Of a DNA stretch of 32,000 bases, positions 1 through 32,000 are shown one piece after another; within the stretch, counting starts at the first letter, position 1, and the number at the start of each line of letters is the position of its first letter. The notes under the pieces are model-generated. The model saw only the letters and a list, made by a program, of their open reading frames with translations. It was not told the DNA's origin and made no database searches. This DNA is from Thermofilum pendens Hrk 5 (GTDB lineage Archaea; Thermoproteota; Thermoprotei; Thermofilales; Thermofilaceae). Made by a program: the position numbers and the translations under genes. Where the stretch lies: contig NC_008698.1 in assembly GCF_000015225.1 (NCBI RefSeq), positions 450,001 to 482,000 on the forward strand, read 5' to 3'.

Positions 1-419
1 GCTCTCCGATAGCTATAACGCCAAGGCAACTGGAAGCTCTTATCAGGCTCTCGGAGGCTCACGCTCGCATGCATCTCCGCGACGTGGTTACTGCTCGTGA
101 CGCGGAAGTCGCTATTAGCCTTATGGAATACTTCCTGAGAAACGTCGGCATAGACACGCAAACAATGACCATCGATATCGATACTATAATGACTGGGCAG
201 CCTAAGTCTCAGCGCGAGAAGCTGATCGCCGTGCTGGACACGGTTAAAAACCTCGTTAGACAAAACAACGGCGAGCCTATAAAGGAGGAGGACCTGTACT
301 CCGAGTTGGAGAAAAACGGCATTGACAGGAACTTCGCTAGGAAAGCTATAGAGAAGTTGCTTGAACAGGGAGAATTGATGCAGCCGTCACCGGGGCGCAT
401 TAGCGTTGTTTCTCTCTAG
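1..419 (+). CDS. mcm: MCM replicative helicase, C-terminal part (5' end lies outside the window)
   Basis: The frame is open from the window edge (SPIAITPRQLEALIRLSEAHARMHLRDVVTARDAEVAISLMEYFL...). This is the conserved MCM post-AAA+ helix, followed by a winged-helix-like tail. Stop TAG at 417-419. Confidence 0.85.
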   Translation, partial: SPIAITPRQLEALIRLSEAHARMHLRDVVTARDAEVAISLMEYFLRNVGIDTQTMTIDIDTIMTGQPKSQREKLIAVLDTVKNLVRQNNGEPIKEEDLYSELEKNGIDRNFARKAIEKLLEQGELMQPSPGRISVVSL

Positions 420-10511: not shown

Positions 10512-10588
10512 AGCCCGGTGGTGTAGCGGCCAAGCATGGCGGGCTCTGGCCCCGCAGATCCGGGGTTCGAATCCCCGCCGGGCTACCA
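10512..10588 (+). tRNA. tRNA-Gln (anticodon CUG), CCA encoded
   Basis: Acceptor AGCCCGG/CCGGGCU (A1-U72, typical of archaeal tRNA-Gln). Anticodon arm GCGGG-CUCUGGC-CCCGC. T arm CGGGG-TTCGAAT-CCCCG. TATA-like GTTTAAAT centred about 33 nt upstream. Confidence 0.9.
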
Positions 10589-12861: not shown

Positions 12862-13797
12862 ATGCGTATGTATGGAGCATTGGAGCTTTACTCGCGGAGT
12901 GTGTCTCCAAAGCTCTTCGGAAACGAGTGTAGCTTTGAAGAGAGTGCTTACGTCGTCGTGGGTGCTCCTTTTGACTCAACGGCGACCGGTGTACCCGGAC
13001 AAAGGTTTGCGCCTCAAAGAATACGTGAAGTCTCGGTAGAGCTCGAAACCTTTCTTCCCGACTTGCAAATAGATGTAGAGCGCCTCGCCGTCAACGATGC
13101 TGGAGACCTACCCGTATTAACCAGCGTAGAAGCCTTGATAGATATCCTGGGCGGAGTCGCCAGGGAAGTCTTGTCGTCCGGGAAAGGGCTCATCATGCTC
13201 GGTGGGGACCATTTCTCGTCCTTCCCCGTCCTCGTTGAAGCAGCAGGCAACGTGGACGAACTAGGCGTGCTCGTCTTCGATGCCCACCTAGATCTTCGAG
13301 ACGAATACCCCGTCAAGTGCAGGTACAGCCATGCTACGGTCTTCCGCCGGTTAATCGAACAAACGAAAAACGTATACATCGCGTACTACAAGCCGCGCGG
13401 ATGGAGCAGCGAAGAGTACGAATTCATGCGTCAATCGCCCAGGAAGCTCGCCGTTCTAAACACCCGGGAAGAGGTAGAAAGCTGGGTAAAGGAGCACAGG
13501 ACGGTATACGTATCTATCGATATCGATGCATTGGACCCCGCGTATGCCCCCGGGACGGGTACTCCTGAACCTATCGGCCTCGCTCCCAGGGAGCTCGTTG
13601 ACTCCCTACGCGCGGCGGTTCTCGGCTCAGAAAAACTCCTAGGAATAGACGTAGTAGAGGTTAACCCGCTAGTGGATGTTAACAACTTGACGTCAAGGGT
13701 TGCCGCGAAAATACTACTCGAAGCACTCGCAGCCATGTACGAGGCTAGGAAGATAGGCGCCTGCACGCGAACTTCTAAACACTTCTTAAACGGTTAA
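12862..13797 (+). CDS. speB: Agmatinase (arginase/ureohydrolase family)
   Basis: 311 aa. Mn-ligand motifs GGDH, DAHLDLRD and SIDIDALDPAYAPGTGTPEP. TATA-like TCATTTAAAA about 27 nt upstream of the ATG. Confidence 0.9.
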   Translation: MRMYGALELYSRSVSPKLFGNECSFEESAYVVVGAPFDSTATGVPGQRFAPQRIREVSVELETFLPDLQIDVERLAVNDAGDLPVLTSVEALIDILGGVAREVLSSGKGLIMLGGDHFSSFPVLVEAAGNVDELGVLVFDAHLDLRDEYPVKCRYSHATVFRRLIEQTKNVYIAYYKPRGWSSEEYEFMRQSPRKLAVLNTREEVESWVKEHRTVYVSIDIDALDPAYAPGTGTPEPIGLAPRELVDSLRAAVLGSEKLLGIDVVEVNPLVDVNNLTSRVAAKILLEALAAMYEARKIGACTRTSKHFLNG

Positions 13798-13798
13798 A

Positions 13799-13818
13799 GC
13801 CGCGCGCGAGATTTATTA
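13799..13818 (+). promoter_or_regulatory. GCCGCGCGCGAG element plus ATTTATTA TATA box (rpoP promoter)
   Basis: The CG-alternating run 13801-13808 lies 2 nt upstream of TATA 13811-13818. The TATA centre is about 28 nt from the in-frame GTG at 13842. Confidence 0.55.
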
Positions 13819-13820
13819 AC

Positions 13821-14009
13821 ATGGCTAGAAATGTAGCCCACGTGGTCGAGGCTGACTACTCCCTAAAGACGTACAGGTGCCTTAGATGCGGCCAAGTCTT
13901 CACTAAGGAAGAGCAGGAGAGACTACCTGGTGTACGGTGTCCATACTGCGGTTTTAGAATAGTCGAAAAGGTACGGCTACCCGTACCCAAAAGAGTCAAG
14001 GCACTTTAG
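13821..14009 (+). CDS. rpoP: DNA-directed RNA polymerase subunit P (Rpo12/RpoP)
   Basis: Zinc ribbon YRCLRCGQ...RCPYCGFRIVEKVR typical of RpoP. The true start may be the GTG at 13842 (leaderless, 55 aa), because the TATA box sits only 3 nt before the ATG at 13821. Confidence 0.85.
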   Translation: MARNVAHVVEADYSLKTYRCLRCGQVFTKEEQERLPGVRCPYCGFRIVEKVRLPVPKRVKAL

Positions 14010-14025
14010 CGCGCGACTTATATAA
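14009..14025 (+). promoter_or_regulatory. GCGCGCG-AC-TTATATAA promoter for the downstream sRNA candidate
   Basis: Perfect TATA octamer 14018-14025, preceded by GCGCGCG that overlaps the rpoP TAG stop. The predicted transcription start at about 14048-14052 coincides with the C box at 14052. Confidence 0.55.
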
Positions 14026-14049
14026 CCTAGGGGTCAAACTAGAGCTTAG

Positions 14050-14102
14050 CTGTGATGAGCCTTGCGAGATCTTGAAAGGTGACGAGTCGAACCCCTCTGA
14101 GC
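14050..14102 (+). ncRNA. C/D-box sRNA candidate
   Basis: C box GUGAUGA (14052-14058), 12-13 nt spacer, degenerate D' (CUUG/UUGA, 14071-14075), C' GUGACGA (14079-14085), 11-nt spacer, D CUGA (14097-14100). Dedicated TATA about 30 nt upstream. Flanked on the 3' side by GCGCGCG. Confidence 0.55.
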
Positions 14103-14107
14103 GCGCG

Positions 14108-15001
14108 TTAATATGGGCTACGCCGCGGTTTCTCCGCTATTACCCCGTAATCCTTGATTACCCTGACTATACGGAACCCCGCGCGTCTAAGCCTCTCAAC
14201 TACGCCCCTCTGGATGTTTACCCCTCGGTGCTTTCCCGGAGCACCCGTGTAGTGGAAAACCCTTCCTCCTTTTTTCAAGACTCTCCAAAGCCTCGTGTAG
14301 AATTCTGCGCTGTAGAGGTGCCCAGCGAAGGCGAACACCGGCGGGTCGTGGAGCACTTTGTCGAAATACTCCTCGGGAAGCTCTCCGACCACGTCAAAGG
14401 CGTCTCCCAAGAGTATACTTGCTCGCGAAAGCTTTTCCGAGAACGGGTTATGCTCAGCAATATACAGCACGTTCGGGTCTTTCTCTATAGAAACCACTTC
14501 CGCTCCTCTCTCCAGTGCGCGTATAGCCGTGTAGCCGAGACCCGTACACACGTCCAGCACTTTCTCCCCCCTGGCTACGCCGAGCATCCTCACTTTTCTC
14601 TCAGCATCGCTCAGCGGGTCTATACCCGTGATGTTGTGCATATGCACACCGTTGATTTCAAGCGTGGGGGCTACCCTCTCCCCGAGATACTTCAACTTGT
14701 AGTAGCCCTTTTCATCTCGTACCTCGACGAAGTACACTCCCTCGGGTCCAACGTATAACAGCTTATCCGAGCCCGCGAGCCTCTCCAGGATGCCTAACGT
14801 CAACCTATGCGTCGCACCCTCCAGGTTTAGAGAGACTTCTGACACGGTTTTAACTGCGCGGGCAATACCTAGCCCTATGTCTACTGGGAGCTCAAATTCA
14901 CCTGTAGGCGACTCTAAGACCTTTACCGCAGAGACCGGTGAGAGTACAAACCCCTTCCTCCTCCTGAACGCAAATGTGTCCACGTTTAACTGTACAGGCA
15001 T
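14108..15001 (-). CDS. Class I SAM-dependent methyltransferase (archaeal, N-terminal extra domain)
   Basis: 297 aa. SAM motif I VLDVCTGLGYTAI, acidic motif II VVSIEKD, and post-I/IV region ...LHDPP. The + strand ORF 14072-14758 is its antisense shadow. Confidence 0.8.
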   Translation of the reverse strand: MPVQLNVDTFAFRRRKGFVLSPVSAVKVLESPTGEFELPVDIGLGIARAVKTVSEVSLNLEGATHRLTLGILERLAGSDKLLYVGPEGVYFVEVRDEKGYYKLKYLGERVAPTLEINGVHMHNITGIDPLSDAERKVRMLGVARGEKVLDVCTGLGYTAIRALERGAEVVSIEKDPNVLYIAEHNPFSEKLSRASILLGDAFDVVGELPEEYFDKVLHDPPVFAFAGHLYSAEFYTRLWRVLKKGGRVFHYTGAPGKHRGVNIQRGVVERLRRAGFRIVRVIKDYGVIAEKPRRSPY

Positions 15002-15060: not shown

Positions 15061-15148
15061 GCGGGGGTGCCCGAGCTAGGTCAAAGGGGGCGGACTGAGG
15101 CTCCGCTGGCGTTGGCCTGCCCGGGTTCGAATCCCGGCCCCCGCACCA
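15061..15148 (+). tRNA. tRNA-Leu (anticodon GAG), class II long variable arm, CCA encoded
   Basis: Acceptor GCGGGGG/CCCCCGC. Anticodon arm GCGGA-CUGAGGC-UCCGC. Long variable arm. T arm CCGGG-TTCGAAT-CCCGG. Confidence 0.9.
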
Positions 15149-25652: not shown

Positions 25653-26747
25653 CTAAGCCCCTCTCCTTAAGCGTGCAAGGTAGTCGCTGAGCGGCTCCCT
25701 GATAACTATACCCTTCCCCGATACAATGTCGAAGATATACTTGCTGGGCTTTACCGGGGCCCATCTAGCCTTCCTTATGTACATGACCCTTTCGACGTTA
25801 CCGTATATCTCCTCTATTCCGAGAACTATTATTCCCGACGCCAGGAACTCCTCCACGCCGAATCTGCTGAGCTTGGTGCTGCCAGTGGGTATCTCGCTCG
25901 TCATTATGGTTGTTAGCTCCCCAGTCTTTTCGATAGCGAAGACCATCTCCCTGAGGAACTCCCTGGCGTAGAGCACGTCCTCTTCTTTGCCGCCGTAGAC
26001 TAGCGGTGCAATGGGATCTATGACTAGCCTTTTAGCGTTTATTTTCTTGGCGGCGTTAAGTATCTGCTCGATAATATACCTGGGCTCGATGTGCTTTCTC
26101 TCGTCCCTCATGTAGATCTTGCTGAAGTGCGTCCTCATGTCCAGGAACATCAGCTTCCTAGCCGAGATTAAGTCGCCTAGGTCCCAGCCGAACAGCTTCA
26201 ACCCGCGCAACAACTGGTTCGTAGGCTCGTCTATAGCTATATAGAGCCCGGGCTCGCCGTTTAACGCTCCATTAATCAGGAACTGAATAGAGAATATCGT
26301 TTTACCGCAACCCGCCTCCCCAGCTACCAAGTACGTCTTACCGCGTAGAAAACCTCCTGCGAGGATCTCGTCAAGGCCAGGTATGCCGGTAGGCGCGTAA
26401 AGTGCTCTCTTCGACAGCAAAGCCTGATTAGTCGACATGACCTCATATGCCTCATCCGTATAGGGTATTTCCTCGACAGGATAAGGCTCCTGGGCAACGG
26501 GATAAGCATTACCAGCGACGCTGGCAACCGGTTGCGGGTACTGCACTGCTGTCTGCGTCGCCTCGACGACAGTAGCCTGAGACACCTGGACAGCCTCTGC
26601 TGGCTGGGCTACCCTGCAGGGCGGGCTGTAGGGGTCCGCGACTCTCGTTTTAAGCTTTAAACAGTACTGCCTGGACTTTATGTAGAGAGGGCATCCTATG
26701 CACGAAGACCTAGCAACCCTATCCATGCCTGCCAAGTCAAACCCCAT
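25653..26747 (-). CDS. KaiC/RadA-superfamily single-domain ATPase with an N-terminal Cys cluster and low-complexity linker
   Basis: Walker A GEAGCGKT and Walker B LVIDP. The KaiC-like core begins at GIPGLDEILAGGFLRG. The N-terminus has CIGC...C...C (4 Cys), followed by a Q/A/V/P/Y-rich segment of about 70 aa. Confidence 0.8.
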   Translation of the reverse strand: MGFDLAGMDRVARSSCIGCPLYIKSRQYCLKLKTRVADPYSPPCRVAQPAEAVQVSQATVVEATQTAVQYPQPVASVAGNAYPVAQEPYPVEEIPYTDEAYEVMSTNQALLSKRALYAPTGIPGLDEILAGGFLRGKTYLVAGEAGCGKTIFSIQFLINGALNGEPGLYIAIDEPTNQLLRGLKLFGWDLGDLISARKLMFLDMRTHFSKIYMRDERKHIEPRYIIEQILNAAKKINAKRLVIDPIAPLVYGGKEEDVLYAREFLREMVFAIEKTGELTTIMTSEIPTGSTKLSRFGVEEFLASGIIVLGIEEIYGNVERVMYIRKARWAPVKPSKYIFDIVSGKGIVIREPLSDYLARLRRGA

Positions 26748-27849: not shown

Positions 27850-27946
<97 letters not shown>

Positions 27947-30619: not shown

Positions 30620-30809
30620 ACTCCCTCACCTTCTCCTCGATGACAGCCCTAACCCCCCTAGCACCACCCGTAGCAAAAGCCTCCAGCAACTCGTACGCGA
30701 GCTTGAGCGCCTCAGGATCCTCTGACAGCCTACGCGCCAGCTGCTCTCTCAGGTAAGCCTCCACGCTCTTCCCAATGTACCTGCGCTCCGGACCCTCACG
30801 CTCCTCCAC
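30588..30809 (-). CDS. Small helical protein (73 aa, GTG start), arcadin-3 position
   Basis: It sits between the arcadin-2-position gene (24-nt gap) and the SMC-like gene, overlapping the latter's start by 14-32 nt. This suggests translational coupling. I recognise no family. Confidence 0.5.
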   Translation of the reverse strand: MEEREGPERRYIGKSVEAYLREQLARRLSEDPEALKLAYELLEAFATGGARGVRAVIEEKVRECGCTPAEGGG

Positions 30810-30833
30810 TACTTCACCCCGGCGACCAGCCTC

Positions 30834-31583
30834 CTACCCGGATCCTCCCCGCCTCCTGGAGAGGAAGTCGAGCCAGGGATTATCGCGGGCAAAGGACGGA
30901 AGCTCGGACTCATCGCCTCTCTCTGGGACCTTTTCCTCCGCGCGCCCCGCCCCTCCAGACGAGAGAATGCGCAACCAGGGGTTATCACGCGCGAAGGACG
31001 GTAGGTCGCCTGTCGATACCCCAGTAGCCTCGCCGCCCGGCACGGACACCGCTCGAGTCTCTCTTGCCTGCTCCGCACCTACAGAAAGGTCGCGTGTCGG
31101 AGAGTAGCCCAGGGGCGGGGGTAGCTGCTGAGCCCTGCTCTCTGAGGAGTAGCCTCCTAGAGCTGCGGGGTGCTTGTAGCTGGGCGTCCTGAGGGGGGCT
31201 GGAATTATCTCCACGACTCCCCCCTCCTCGGTAACGAGCAGTAAACCAGCTTTGTATTCGTCTTCAAACTCTCTCCTCAGAGAGTATCCCGTAAGCTTCA
31301 CCCAACCCTCCTCGTCCACCACTATGTACACTTTCCCATAGGAGGCATCGGCGCAAGTAGCGCCGGCACTCTTAACTCTTTGAAACATACTTCCCGTAGC
31401 CCCTGACCCTTCCGCGCCGGGCGCACCGCTCACGATCTTGAAGGCCACCCTAACCCCCGACCCATCAACCGCGGAGGCGTCGAAAGGTGGCTCCGCCTTC
31501 TCGAAGGCGCTCATACCAGCTTCCTTGGCGAAACGCTCGAGAGAGCGTATGATTCTCCGGCGCTTAACCTCCCCGCTATACAT
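30834..31583 (-). CDS. Arcadin-2-position protein: globular N-domain, disordered linker and two C-terminal LPSFARDNPWL motifs
   Basis: 249 aa, located directly downstream of the crenactin gene. The N-terminal ~135 aa look structured, followed by a G/S/P/A-rich linker and then the duplicated motif. Assignment is by gene order and architecture only. Confidence 0.6.
   Translation of the reverse strand: MYSGEVKRRRIIRSLERFAKEAGMSAFEKAEPPFDASAVDGSGVRVAFKIVSGAPGAEGSGATGSMFQRVKSAGATCADASYGKVYIVVDEEGWVKLTGYSLRREFEDEYKAGLLLVTEEGGVVEIIPAPLRTPSYKHPAALGGYSSESRAQQLPPPLGYSPTRDLSVGAEQARETRAVSVPGGEATGVSTGDLPSFARDNPWLRILSSGGAGRAEEKVPERGDESELPSFARDNPWLDFLSRRRGGSG
30870..31004 (-). repeat. Tandem in-frame duplication encoding LPSFARDNPWL twice (period 102 nt / 34 aa)
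   Basis: Copy 1 is 30972-31004 and copy 2 is 30870-30902. The peptides are 11/11 identical, and the DNA differs at 7 of 33 positions, all synonymous. Both copies are followed by x-(I/F)-L-S. Confidence 0.85.
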
Positions 31584-31628: not shown

Positions 31629-32000
31629 CTAGTAGTGGACCCCTCTCTTGTACCAGCCTTCACGCCTCTTCCAGTCCCACTCTACGTCCTCGGGTACCGC
31701 TATGCTGTAAACGATCGTACCCTTCCAGACGGAGTATAAGGGGTCTGAGACCAACCTCACGTTGCTTTCAATGCCGAGCCTCTTAAGCTCCAAAGCGACC
31801 TTCGTAGCACTATCGACCGCGACGTCCTCAAGTCCCTGGGGGACCTTCCAGGCGAAGTTCCCTCCGCTCAGAATTATGTCCTTGTAGAGTGCCGGCTGTA
31901 GCTCAGTGCTAGTCCTTGAAACCGAGTGGGTAATTGCCTGTACCAGCGGCATGGTGCCCCTCACTCTCTCGCCGCCCACCACCGTGTCCTTGGGCCTGGG
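31629..32000 (-). CDS. Crenactin (archaeal actin homolog), C-terminal part (5' end lies outside the window)
   Basis: The frame is open to the window edge. DIILSGGNFAW corresponds to actin IVLSGGTT (phosphate-2/adenosine region), and PLYSVWKGTIVYS corresponds to actin KYSVWIGGSILAS. Confidence 0.8.
   Translation of the reverse strand, partial: PRPKDTVVGGERVRGTMPLVQAITHSVSRTSTELQPALYKDIILSGGNFAWKVPQGLEDVAVDSATKVALELKRLGIESNVRLVSDPLYSVWKGTIVYSIAVPEDVEWDWKRREGWYKRGVHY

Follow-up and report, generated by a model that had tools for sequence, protein, structure and literature searches.

Introduction

Outside the Asgard archaea, no prokaryotic protein is more closely related to eukaryotic F-actin than crenactin, and to our knowledge arcadin-2 is the only crenactin regulator with a known mechanism. 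Here we describe an arcadin-2-type gene of Thermofilum pendens Hrk 5, the product of which carries a tryptophan-containing C-terminal motif, the putative crenactin-binding helix, not once but twice. The gene lies in a stretch of 32,000 nucleotides (nt) of the genome (contig NC_008698.1, positions 450,001 to 482,000 of the forward strand); the whole of this stretch is referred to as the window.

In the arcadin-2 protein of Pyrobaculum calidifontis, a conserved C-terminal helix follows a linker that is not conserved (Izore 2016, PMC5173319). This helix contains a key tryptophan and is the sole crenactin-binding element of the protein; the last 17 residues (R187-R203) alone match full-length arcadin-2 in their ability to depolymerise crenactin filaments, and arcadin-2 and crenactin form a 1:1 complex with a dissociation constant of 31 nM (PMC5173319). 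In structure 5LY3 (1.6 Å), the arcadin-2 peptide, modelled as ordered to its last residue, R203, occupies the hydrophobic groove between crenactin subdomains IA and IIA, and the same groove receives the D-loop of the next crenactin subunit (PMC5173319). The C-terminal peptide of ParR has the same orientation in the groove as arcadin-2, while peptides of the thymosin/WH2 type have the opposite orientation (PMC5173319). The crenactin filament has a rise of 25.6 Å between strands and of 51.3 Å along a strand (PMC5173319). The initial annotation of the window, made from the sequence alone, had stated that arcadin-2 docks a short C-terminal helix in the crenactin groove, and this agrees with the published work.

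Results

The 249-aa protein carries the same peptide twice

The peptide LPSFARDNPWL was present twice in an open reading frame (ORF) of 249 amino acids (aa), at aa 194-204 (window positions 30972-31004) and at aa 228-238 (30870-30902). The start-to-start distance was 34 aa, and the two copies together spanned 30870-31004, exactly the interval in which the initial annotation had placed two identical 11-aa motifs. The repeat was slightly longer than noted there. At the protein level it reached 15 aa (LPSFARDNPWL-RILS and LPSFARDNPWL-DFLS) and overall it comprised 15-16 codons, while at the DNA level it appeared as a direct repeat of 48 nt with 75% identity and a spacing of 102 nt. A search of the window in all frames revealed no third copy besides the two in the 249-aa ORF.

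A recount confirmed that the DNA of the two copies differed at 7 of 33 nt and that every difference was synonymous. Six of the differences were located at third codon positions and one at the first position of a Leu codon pair (TTG/CTC). By Nei-Gojobori counting, the 11 motif codons comprised 8.0 synonymous and 25.0 non-synonymous sites. Synonymous sites were saturated between the copies (proportion of differing sites, pS = 0.875, about 7/8), and non-synonymous change was 0/25. The chance that seven randomly placed substitutions are all synonymous was P = 2.5e-5. The same protein, letter for letter, was found in two other independent read-set assemblies. One of these two assemblies was 99.2% identical in DNA and showed three differences in the arcadin-2-type gene, all of them synonymous and one of them in codon 204, inside copy 1; the arcadin-4 gene had 27 nt and 8 aa changes in the same comparison. 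Since synonymous sites were saturated and non-synonymous change was zero, the sequences supported an old duplication with both copies under purifying selection. The initial annotation had proposed just this, and its proposal was borne out by the comparison of pS with non-synonymous change, by the silent-only strain differences and by the profile scores described below.

Gene order, N-domain and architecture identify the protein as a divergent arcadin-2

On the minus strand, crenactin was followed by the 249-aa gene and then by genes for an arcadin-3-like protein of 73 aa and an arcadin-4-like protein of 791 aa, which is the order of the arcade cluster. As in P. calidifontis (Rkd2; Ettema 2011, Izore 2016), the gene stood right after crenactin and before arcadin-3 and arcadin-4. 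The full-length crenactin, taken from the near-identical contig L010 of the same organism, scored 688 bits on the NCBIfam crenactin model NF053560 (cut-off 630) and matched P. calidifontis crenactin (4CJ7/5LY3) with an E-value (E) of 3.7e-117. The nearest crenactins were those of Thermofilaceae, with 76-78% identity. The same gene order was present at five related loci and was shared by loci of Thermofilaceae, Thermoproteales and Thermoproteaceae metagenome-assembled genomes (MAGs) that were retrieved via the crenactin C-terminus. A similar small gene occupied the arcadin-3 position at loci L001, L002, L004, L005 and L008.

The only match of the 249-aa protein in a word-indexed search was the protein itself; relatives emerged by an exhaustive search of representatives, and the closest of them were annotated as 'Thermofilum sp.'. 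The protein matched one Thermofilum relative (P0002) over aa 1-209 with E 3e-21 (phmmer). The N-domain alone (aa 1-137, motifs removed) matched an arcadin-2 profile (A4) with 96.1% probability and E 2.8e-9 (hhalign). This profile was built from 15 arcadin-2-type proteins, including members that match the NCBIfam arcadin-2 model (NF053561 Rkd2, equivalog, cut-off 290 bits), and the query was left out. Against the Rkd2 model, the 249-aa protein itself gave no match at E ≤ 1. Of the nine sequences in a family alignment (A1), three did match it, as did, separately, a Caldivirga protein (P0031) (best E 6.5e-14), all far under the cut-off, and the model appears to be tuned to Pyrobaculum-like sequences. 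The assignment to arcadin-2 holds despite the missed model because the N-domain matches profile A4 and members of the alignment match Rkd2; the link to the P. calidifontis protein, from which the N-domain is too divergent for the NCBIfam model, is made via intermediate sequences and profile comparison.

The architecture was also that of P. calidifontis arcadin-2, with a folded N-domain and, beyond a disordered linker that is not conserved, a short conserved C-terminal helix with a Trp residue; here the helix motif was present twice instead of once. N235 and W237 were invariant in both alignments, and D234, P236 and L241 were invariant in alignment A3. The motif resembled the P. calidifontis peptide in its length (15 aa and a short tail) and its invariant Trp, and it stood at the extreme C-terminus in all relatives. 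From these shared features we infer that it is equivalent to the crenactin-binding helix of P. calidifontis. Gene order, the profile match of the N-domain, and architecture with motif are sound grounds to regard the 249-aa protein as a divergent positional ortholog of arcadin-2; gene order and architecture thus upheld its initial reading as arcadin-2 and place it in an arcade cluster.

A search of PDB sequences with the 249-aa protein gave no match in a library of chains of at least 20 residues (the arcadin-2 peptide of 5LY3 has 17). A Pfam match of the motif region to L51_S25_CI-B8 fell under the threshold, and we take it for a chance resemblance of the short helix. P0031 of Caldivirga maquilingensis was considered as a synteny control, but crenactin was not adjacent at the one place shown and it gave no synteny support. 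The P0031 gene (L032:5001-5624, Rkd2 match) lies between isochorismatase and raffinose-synthase-like genes.

In a Foldseek search, the top match of the N-domain was 3dnx (E 7.9e-5), and XisH (2inb/2okf), SfsA, YaeQ, NucS, splicing endonuclease and Hjc were also matched, with target-normalised template modelling scores of about 0.5-0.57. The residue two positions before the conserved Lys (this motif Lys was picked by eye), which would be the acidic position of a (D/E)xK triad, was Gly, Ala, Leu or Phe. The arcadin-2 N-domain resembles these proteins of the PD-(D/E)xK nuclease fold, and it may be such a fold that was inactivated and is used for nucleic-acid or protein binding.

All other arcadin-2-type proteins examined have a single terminal motif

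The set of relatives comprised about 25 distinct arcadin-2-type sequences and 24 members of three 90% clusters, drawn from the exhaustive representative search, a profile search and syntenic loci. It covered three other Thermofilum lineages (37-41% identity), other Thermofilaceae, Caldivirga, a Thermoproteaceae MAG, and MAGs of Bathyarchaeia, Geothermarchaeota and Brockarchaeota. The initial annotation had suggested counting the motifs per homolog. Exactly one motif, always terminal, was present in all of the approximately 25 other arcadin-2-type proteins. The pair occurred in no ortholog, and the closest ortholog that protein and metagenome searches turned up was 41% identical. A metagenome scan for closer, possibly two-motif orthologs yielded none, as all 17 loci matched through the motif only.

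A position-specific scoring matrix (PSSM) was derived from 18 single-motif arcadin-2 tails, excluding the window protein. A scan of 23 other arcadin-2-type proteins for a relic second motif gave no non-terminal match above shuffled controls. The segment 'TDFRDERTSLEE' of P0002, which MAFFT placed opposite copy 1, was considered as such a relic and was rejected by PSSM scans against shuffled controls. Because all other arcadin-2-type proteins carry one motif without a relic of a second, the doubling of the motif appears specific to this lineage among the relatives found. Within the window protein, the internal copy scored higher than the terminal copy (Table 1) and had DNPWLRILS in common with the nearest ortholog, P0002. 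By sequence, both copies look fully functional.

A literature search for a two-helix arcadin-2 or for tandem arrays of the motif turned up no description of either, in line with the initial remark that a two-motif version is not known to have been described.

The two motifs may allow bivalent binding of crenactin

Taken together, we regard it as likely, though well short of certain, that the protein is a Thermofilaceae arcadin-2 with its crenactin-binding helix duplicated in tandem, with both copies held at the protein level and the molecule most likely bivalent. By homology with P. calidifontis, an extended LPSF segment would lead, in each copy, into an N-capped amphipathic helix (DNP-W-L-x-x-L). 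Each helix would insert Trp, Leu and Phe side chains into the IA/IIA groove of crenactin and would compete there with the D-loop of the next subunit, which is also the action expected from the P. calidifontis protein. In AlphaFold2 models, helices were predicted for copy 2 at aa 230-233 and 236-245, with a predicted local distance difference test (pLDDT) score of about 64-76, and this copy takes the same place as the single motif of all relatives.

The linker between the motifs (about 19 residues) was predicted to be disordered and has a contour length of about 65 Å. Equivalent sites on neighbouring protomers were calculated to be about 40-56 Å apart, with assumed groove radii of 15-25 Å. Since the linker is longer than this distance, the pair of motifs could reach two neighbouring protomers, and binding of two crenactin subunits by one molecule is plausible. 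A complex of 1:2 is predicted here, in contrast to the published 1:1 complex. In the filament the D-loop fills the groove, and free grooves are left only on monomers and on the two terminal protomers at the barbed end. A bivalent molecule could, therefore, hold two crenactin monomers or cap the barbed end of the double-stranded filament with avidity, and would sequester or cap more strongly than an arcadin-2 with one helix. Two-monomer sequestration or high-avidity barbed-end capping is the most likely consequence by this reasoning. Nucleation, through a cross-strand dimer templated by the pair, is possible too but ranks lower because the single helix depolymerises filaments.

Several points weigh against this interpretation. 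Besides the missed Rkd2 model and the single terminal motif of all relatives, long-term conservation of the pair was seen in the comparison within the gene and in two near-identical strains only. In nearly all relatives, basic residues come after the motif; the internal copy has neither these nor a free C-terminus, and it may bind crenactin more weakly. Moreover, it is the extreme C-terminus that binds crenactin in the published complex, with 1:1 stoichiometry (PMC5173319).

An alternative is that only the terminal copy works on crenactin, while the internal copy is kept for another partner, for autoinhibitory docking in cis on the protein's own N-domain, or as a spare. Other arcadin-2 proteins do function with one motif, which lies at the very C-terminus and has basic residues after it, and the P. 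calidifontis peptide is ordered to its last residue. In the window protein, SGGAGR follows the internal copy in place of a basic tail, and AlphaFold2 confidence was about 50 for copy 1 compared to about 64-76 for copy 2. The low pLDDT of copy 1 is, however, expected because this copy is an insertion that the underlying alignment does not cover. Of the two copies, the internal one is nearer to the consensus and shares DNPWLRILS with P0002, non-synonymous change is zero despite saturated synonymous sites, and in the multi-motif family described in the next section, internal copies that lack a basic tail are conserved just as well. On balance, we consider a role of the terminal copy alone to be unlikely and prefer two working helices.

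The motif also occurs in tandem on virus-like contigs and on small unrelated proteins

A family of metagenomic proteins (P0003, P0005, P0008, P0010 and P0034-P0039) carried 2-3 tandem C-terminal LPSFxxDNPWLxxL(S/A) motifs, with Ala or Val directly after LPSF, at a spacing of 30-40 aa (Table 1), compared to 34 aa in the window protein. The motif is the same 15-aa element in both cases, but the N-terminal parts of this family, a Zn-ribbon (Pfam PSV_ORF131-like), a coiled coil and an ArsR-like winged helix, are unrelated to arcadin-2, and its genes lie on probable mobile elements, unlike the window gene in its arcade cluster. P0010 had an LPSFARDNPWL core identical to that of the window protein and a spacing of exactly 34 aa. 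P0037 had three identical LPSFAVDNPWL cores with 5-6 differences, all synonymous, as in the window. Linkers rich in Gly and Ser followed the internal copies. A sister group (P0040-P0057) had the same N-terminal part and no motif at all.

The P0037 contig (L012) was 23 kb in length and contained mostly ORFans. One gene showed 52-57% identity to a protein conserved in Rudiviridae, and a 1023-aa protein had a ConA-like lectin domain, as in other archaeal viruses, which is the only part it had in common with other viral proteins. A neighbouring 138-aa ORF had no match. An assignment of L012 as a rudivirus was rejected, since one gene only was clearly common with Rudiviridae, and the contig is called virus-like; for the multi-motif family as a whole, this label is based on the gene content of a few metagenomic contigs. 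Other members of the family adjoined PAPS-reductase, QueF and ribbon-helix-helix (RHH) genes. Among the IMG/VR viral contigs, no relative of the multi-motif family and no DNA match to the full motif was found.

A single SFARDNPW with a basic tail was present at the extreme C-terminus of unrelated small proteins on metagenome contigs (L016-L031). The LPSFARDNPW(L/I) tail occurred on C2H2 zinc-finger/coiled-coil proteins of 139-147 aa (above the Pfam cut-off) and, with weak Pfam matches, on RHH-like (103-107 aa) and winged-helix-like (133 aa) proteins. A motif tail was also found on a 77-aa protein and on a coiled-coil protein of 276-292 aa, the gene of which adjoins one for an Hjc resolvase. 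Because the motif occurs on unrelated proteins, both in arrays and as a single C-terminal tail, the helix has the look of a portable module, and the parts that carry it often resemble nucleic-acid-binding domains.

In a MAG labelled Thaumarchaeota, a gene (L009:8169-9017) overlaps the crenactin end and encodes a coiled coil with the motif LPDAAIDNPWMNVLKNRKRGKR at the end of the protein. This protein has at least two strongly hydrophobic segments, which are probably transmembrane, and it could be a membrane anchor for crenactin.

Proteins from the virus-like contigs could hijack host crenactin. More tentatively still, and with the odds rather against it, LPSFxxDNPWLxxLS could be a portable crenactin-groove motif whose copy number tunes its function. 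One copy would then sequester monomers, as in ordinary arcadin-2, while 2-3 copies at a spacing of 30-40 aa would bind both free barbed-end grooves or template a crenactin dimer or trimer. The window protein would be a bivalent capper or nucleator. The Zn-ribbon/winged-helix proteins of the virus-like contigs, and likewise the single-motif zinc-finger, RHH-like and winged-helix proteins, would be ParR-like adaptors with which mobile elements couple their DNA to host actin.

The duplication most likely arose in place

The motif arrays of the virus-like contigs raise another explanation for the second motif, its capture by recombination from a mobile-element gene with tandem motifs. The DNA divergence of the two copies would then reflect separate origins and not age. 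Proteins with 2-3 such motifs are indeed encoded there, and the core and the spacing of P0010 are identical to those of the window protein. However, the Ser of PSF is encoded by TCC in both window copies and by AGC in all nine copies of the virus-like family; AGY is also used in two Thermofilaceae orthologs, those for which DNA was available. A switch between the TCN and AGY codons of Ser requires two substitutions. The window copies agree at 26/33 nt, which is at least as close as to any mobile-element copy (20-26/33), and the linkers show no similarity. We therefore consider capture improbable. Because both copies use TCC while the others use AGY, they most likely descend from one copy in place, via tandem duplication of about 102 nt (about 34 codons). 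Capture would bear on the origin alone, and the inferred selection on both copies would stand.

Features of the locus

Coordinates of all features are listed in Table 1. An ORF on the opposite strand of the repeat (30775-31107, plus strand, 110 aa) contains the mirror peptides SQGLSRAKDG and NQGLSRAKDG. It is a by-product of the minus-strand repeat, and there is no evidence for a second gene. Although this ORF likewise shows a repeated peptide, an artefact of mis-assembly, of a wrong frame or of a non-coding repeat read as protein is effectively ruled out, as the same gene is present in three independent assemblies, the minus-strand frame alone gives homologs, conserved gene order and the family motif, the differences between the copies are synonymous in that frame, and the N-domain matches the arcadin-2 profile.

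An 11-nt unit, ACCCGCCTCCT, is present in about three tandem copies at window positions 30825-30857. The array covers the last codons and the stop of arcadin-2 and the short spacer before arcadin-3, and is GGAGG-rich on the coding strand. The 791-aa arcadin-4-like protein also matches Pfam SMC_N and AAA_23. A KaiC-family gene lies a few genes downstream of arcadin-4 in the window; at the Thermofilaceae locus L001, a KaiC-like gene (13742-14578) likewise follows arcadin-4, with a small RHH-like gene in between. The association of the KaiC-like gene with the arcade cluster may be conserved. The length of the tRNA-Ala gene (97 nt) suggests that it contains an intron.

Table 1. Features of the arcade locus and the rest of the window, and genes of the multi-motif family outside the window (contig handle before the colon).
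Feature	Position	Strand	Basis and remarks
Arcadin-2-type gene, 249 aa	30834..31583	-	ORF directly downstream of crenactin; N-domain profile match
Folded N-terminal domain, aa 1-~130	31194-31583	-	AlphaFold2 pLDDT ~90
Disordered linker before motifs, aa ~135-193		-	AlphaFold2 pLDDT <50 for aa 141-147 and 158-195
Motif copy 1 (internal), LPSFARDNPWLRILS, aa 194-208	30960..31004	-	PSSM 50.1 bits; predicted helix aa 202-209
Inter-motif linker, SGGAGRAEEKVPERGDESE, aa 209-227	30903..30959	-	pLDDT <50 for aa 207-223; sequence not conserved
Motif copy 2 (terminal), LPSFARDNPWLDFLS, aa 228-242	30858..30902	-	PSSM 38.8 bits; followed by the short basic tail RRRGGSG and stop
Crenactin gene, 3' end (last 123 codons; gene runs off the window)	31629..32000	-	Weak Pfam Actin match on the fragment
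Arcadin-3-like gene, 73 aa	30588..30809	-	NCBIfam Rkd3 arcadin-3, E 4.6e-6, under curated cut-off
Arcadin-4-like gene, SMC/Rad50-type ATPase, 791 aa	28244..30619	-	NCBIfam Rkd4 arcadin-4, E 1e-87, 295 bits (equivalog cut-off 860)
KaiC-family ATPase gene	25653-26747	-	Pfam KaiC, E 1.2e-67; N-terminal extension of ~115 aa
tRNA-Ala (CGC)	27850-27946	+	tRNA call of 97 nt
tRNA-Leu (GAG)	15061-15148	+	
tRNA-Gln (CTG)	10512-10588	+	
Multi-motif family gene	L012:10001-11212		Outside the window
Multi-motif family gene	L013:4802-5893		Outside the window
Multi-motif family gene	L014:311-1267		Outside the window
Multi-motif family gene	L015:636-1934		Outside the window

Discussion

The WH2 regulators of eukaryotic actin offer a functional parallel to the protein described here. 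In these regulators, copy number sets the activity, that is, sequestering versus nucleation, capping or severing. Like the tandem WH2 regulators Spire, Cordon-bleu and VopL/VopF and like thymosin beta-4, the window protein is predicted to present short amphipathic helices to the groove on the barbed face of an actin-fold protein, and like the tandem arrays it has two motifs, 34 aa apart, on a disordered linker of about 19 aa. The initial annotation had drawn the analogy to tandem WH2 repeats, and it stands as a functional one, with two motifs and a flexible linker. It does not extend to sequence or orientation. The window motif LPSFxxDNPWLxxLS has no sequence relationship to the WH2 amphipathic helix with LKKT/V, no WH2 or thymosin family was among the Pfam matches at E ≤ 0.1, and thymosin peptides are oriented in the groove opposite to arcadin-2 (PMC5173319).

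In the orientation of the peptide, the closer parallel is ParR of the ParMRC system, a DNA-binding adaptor whose C-terminal peptide docks in the groove of an actin-like protein in the same way as arcadin-2 (PMC5173319). ParR also binds multivalently at the filament end, and its layout resembles that of the metagenomic RHH-like, winged-helix and zinc-finger proteins that bear the motif. In ParR, however, multivalency results from oligomerisation on parC DNA and not from tandem repeats within one chain, and its domain is a ribbon-helix-helix, whereas the arcadin-2 N-domain resembles a PD-(D/E)xK nuclease-like fold.

In eukaryotes, it is multivalency that sets the tandem WH2 proteins and other nucleators and cappers apart from thymosin and other sequesterers. 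A natural two-helix arcadin-2 gives a direct handle on multivalency in archaeal actin regulation. The arrays on virus-like contigs and the single C-terminal tags suggest that the circle of crenactin-binding proteins is wider, and mobile elements may use some of them to exploit the actin cytoskeleton of the host. If the motif is indeed portable and tuned by its copy number, it would be an archaeal counterpart of the tandem WH2 arrays that evolved independently.

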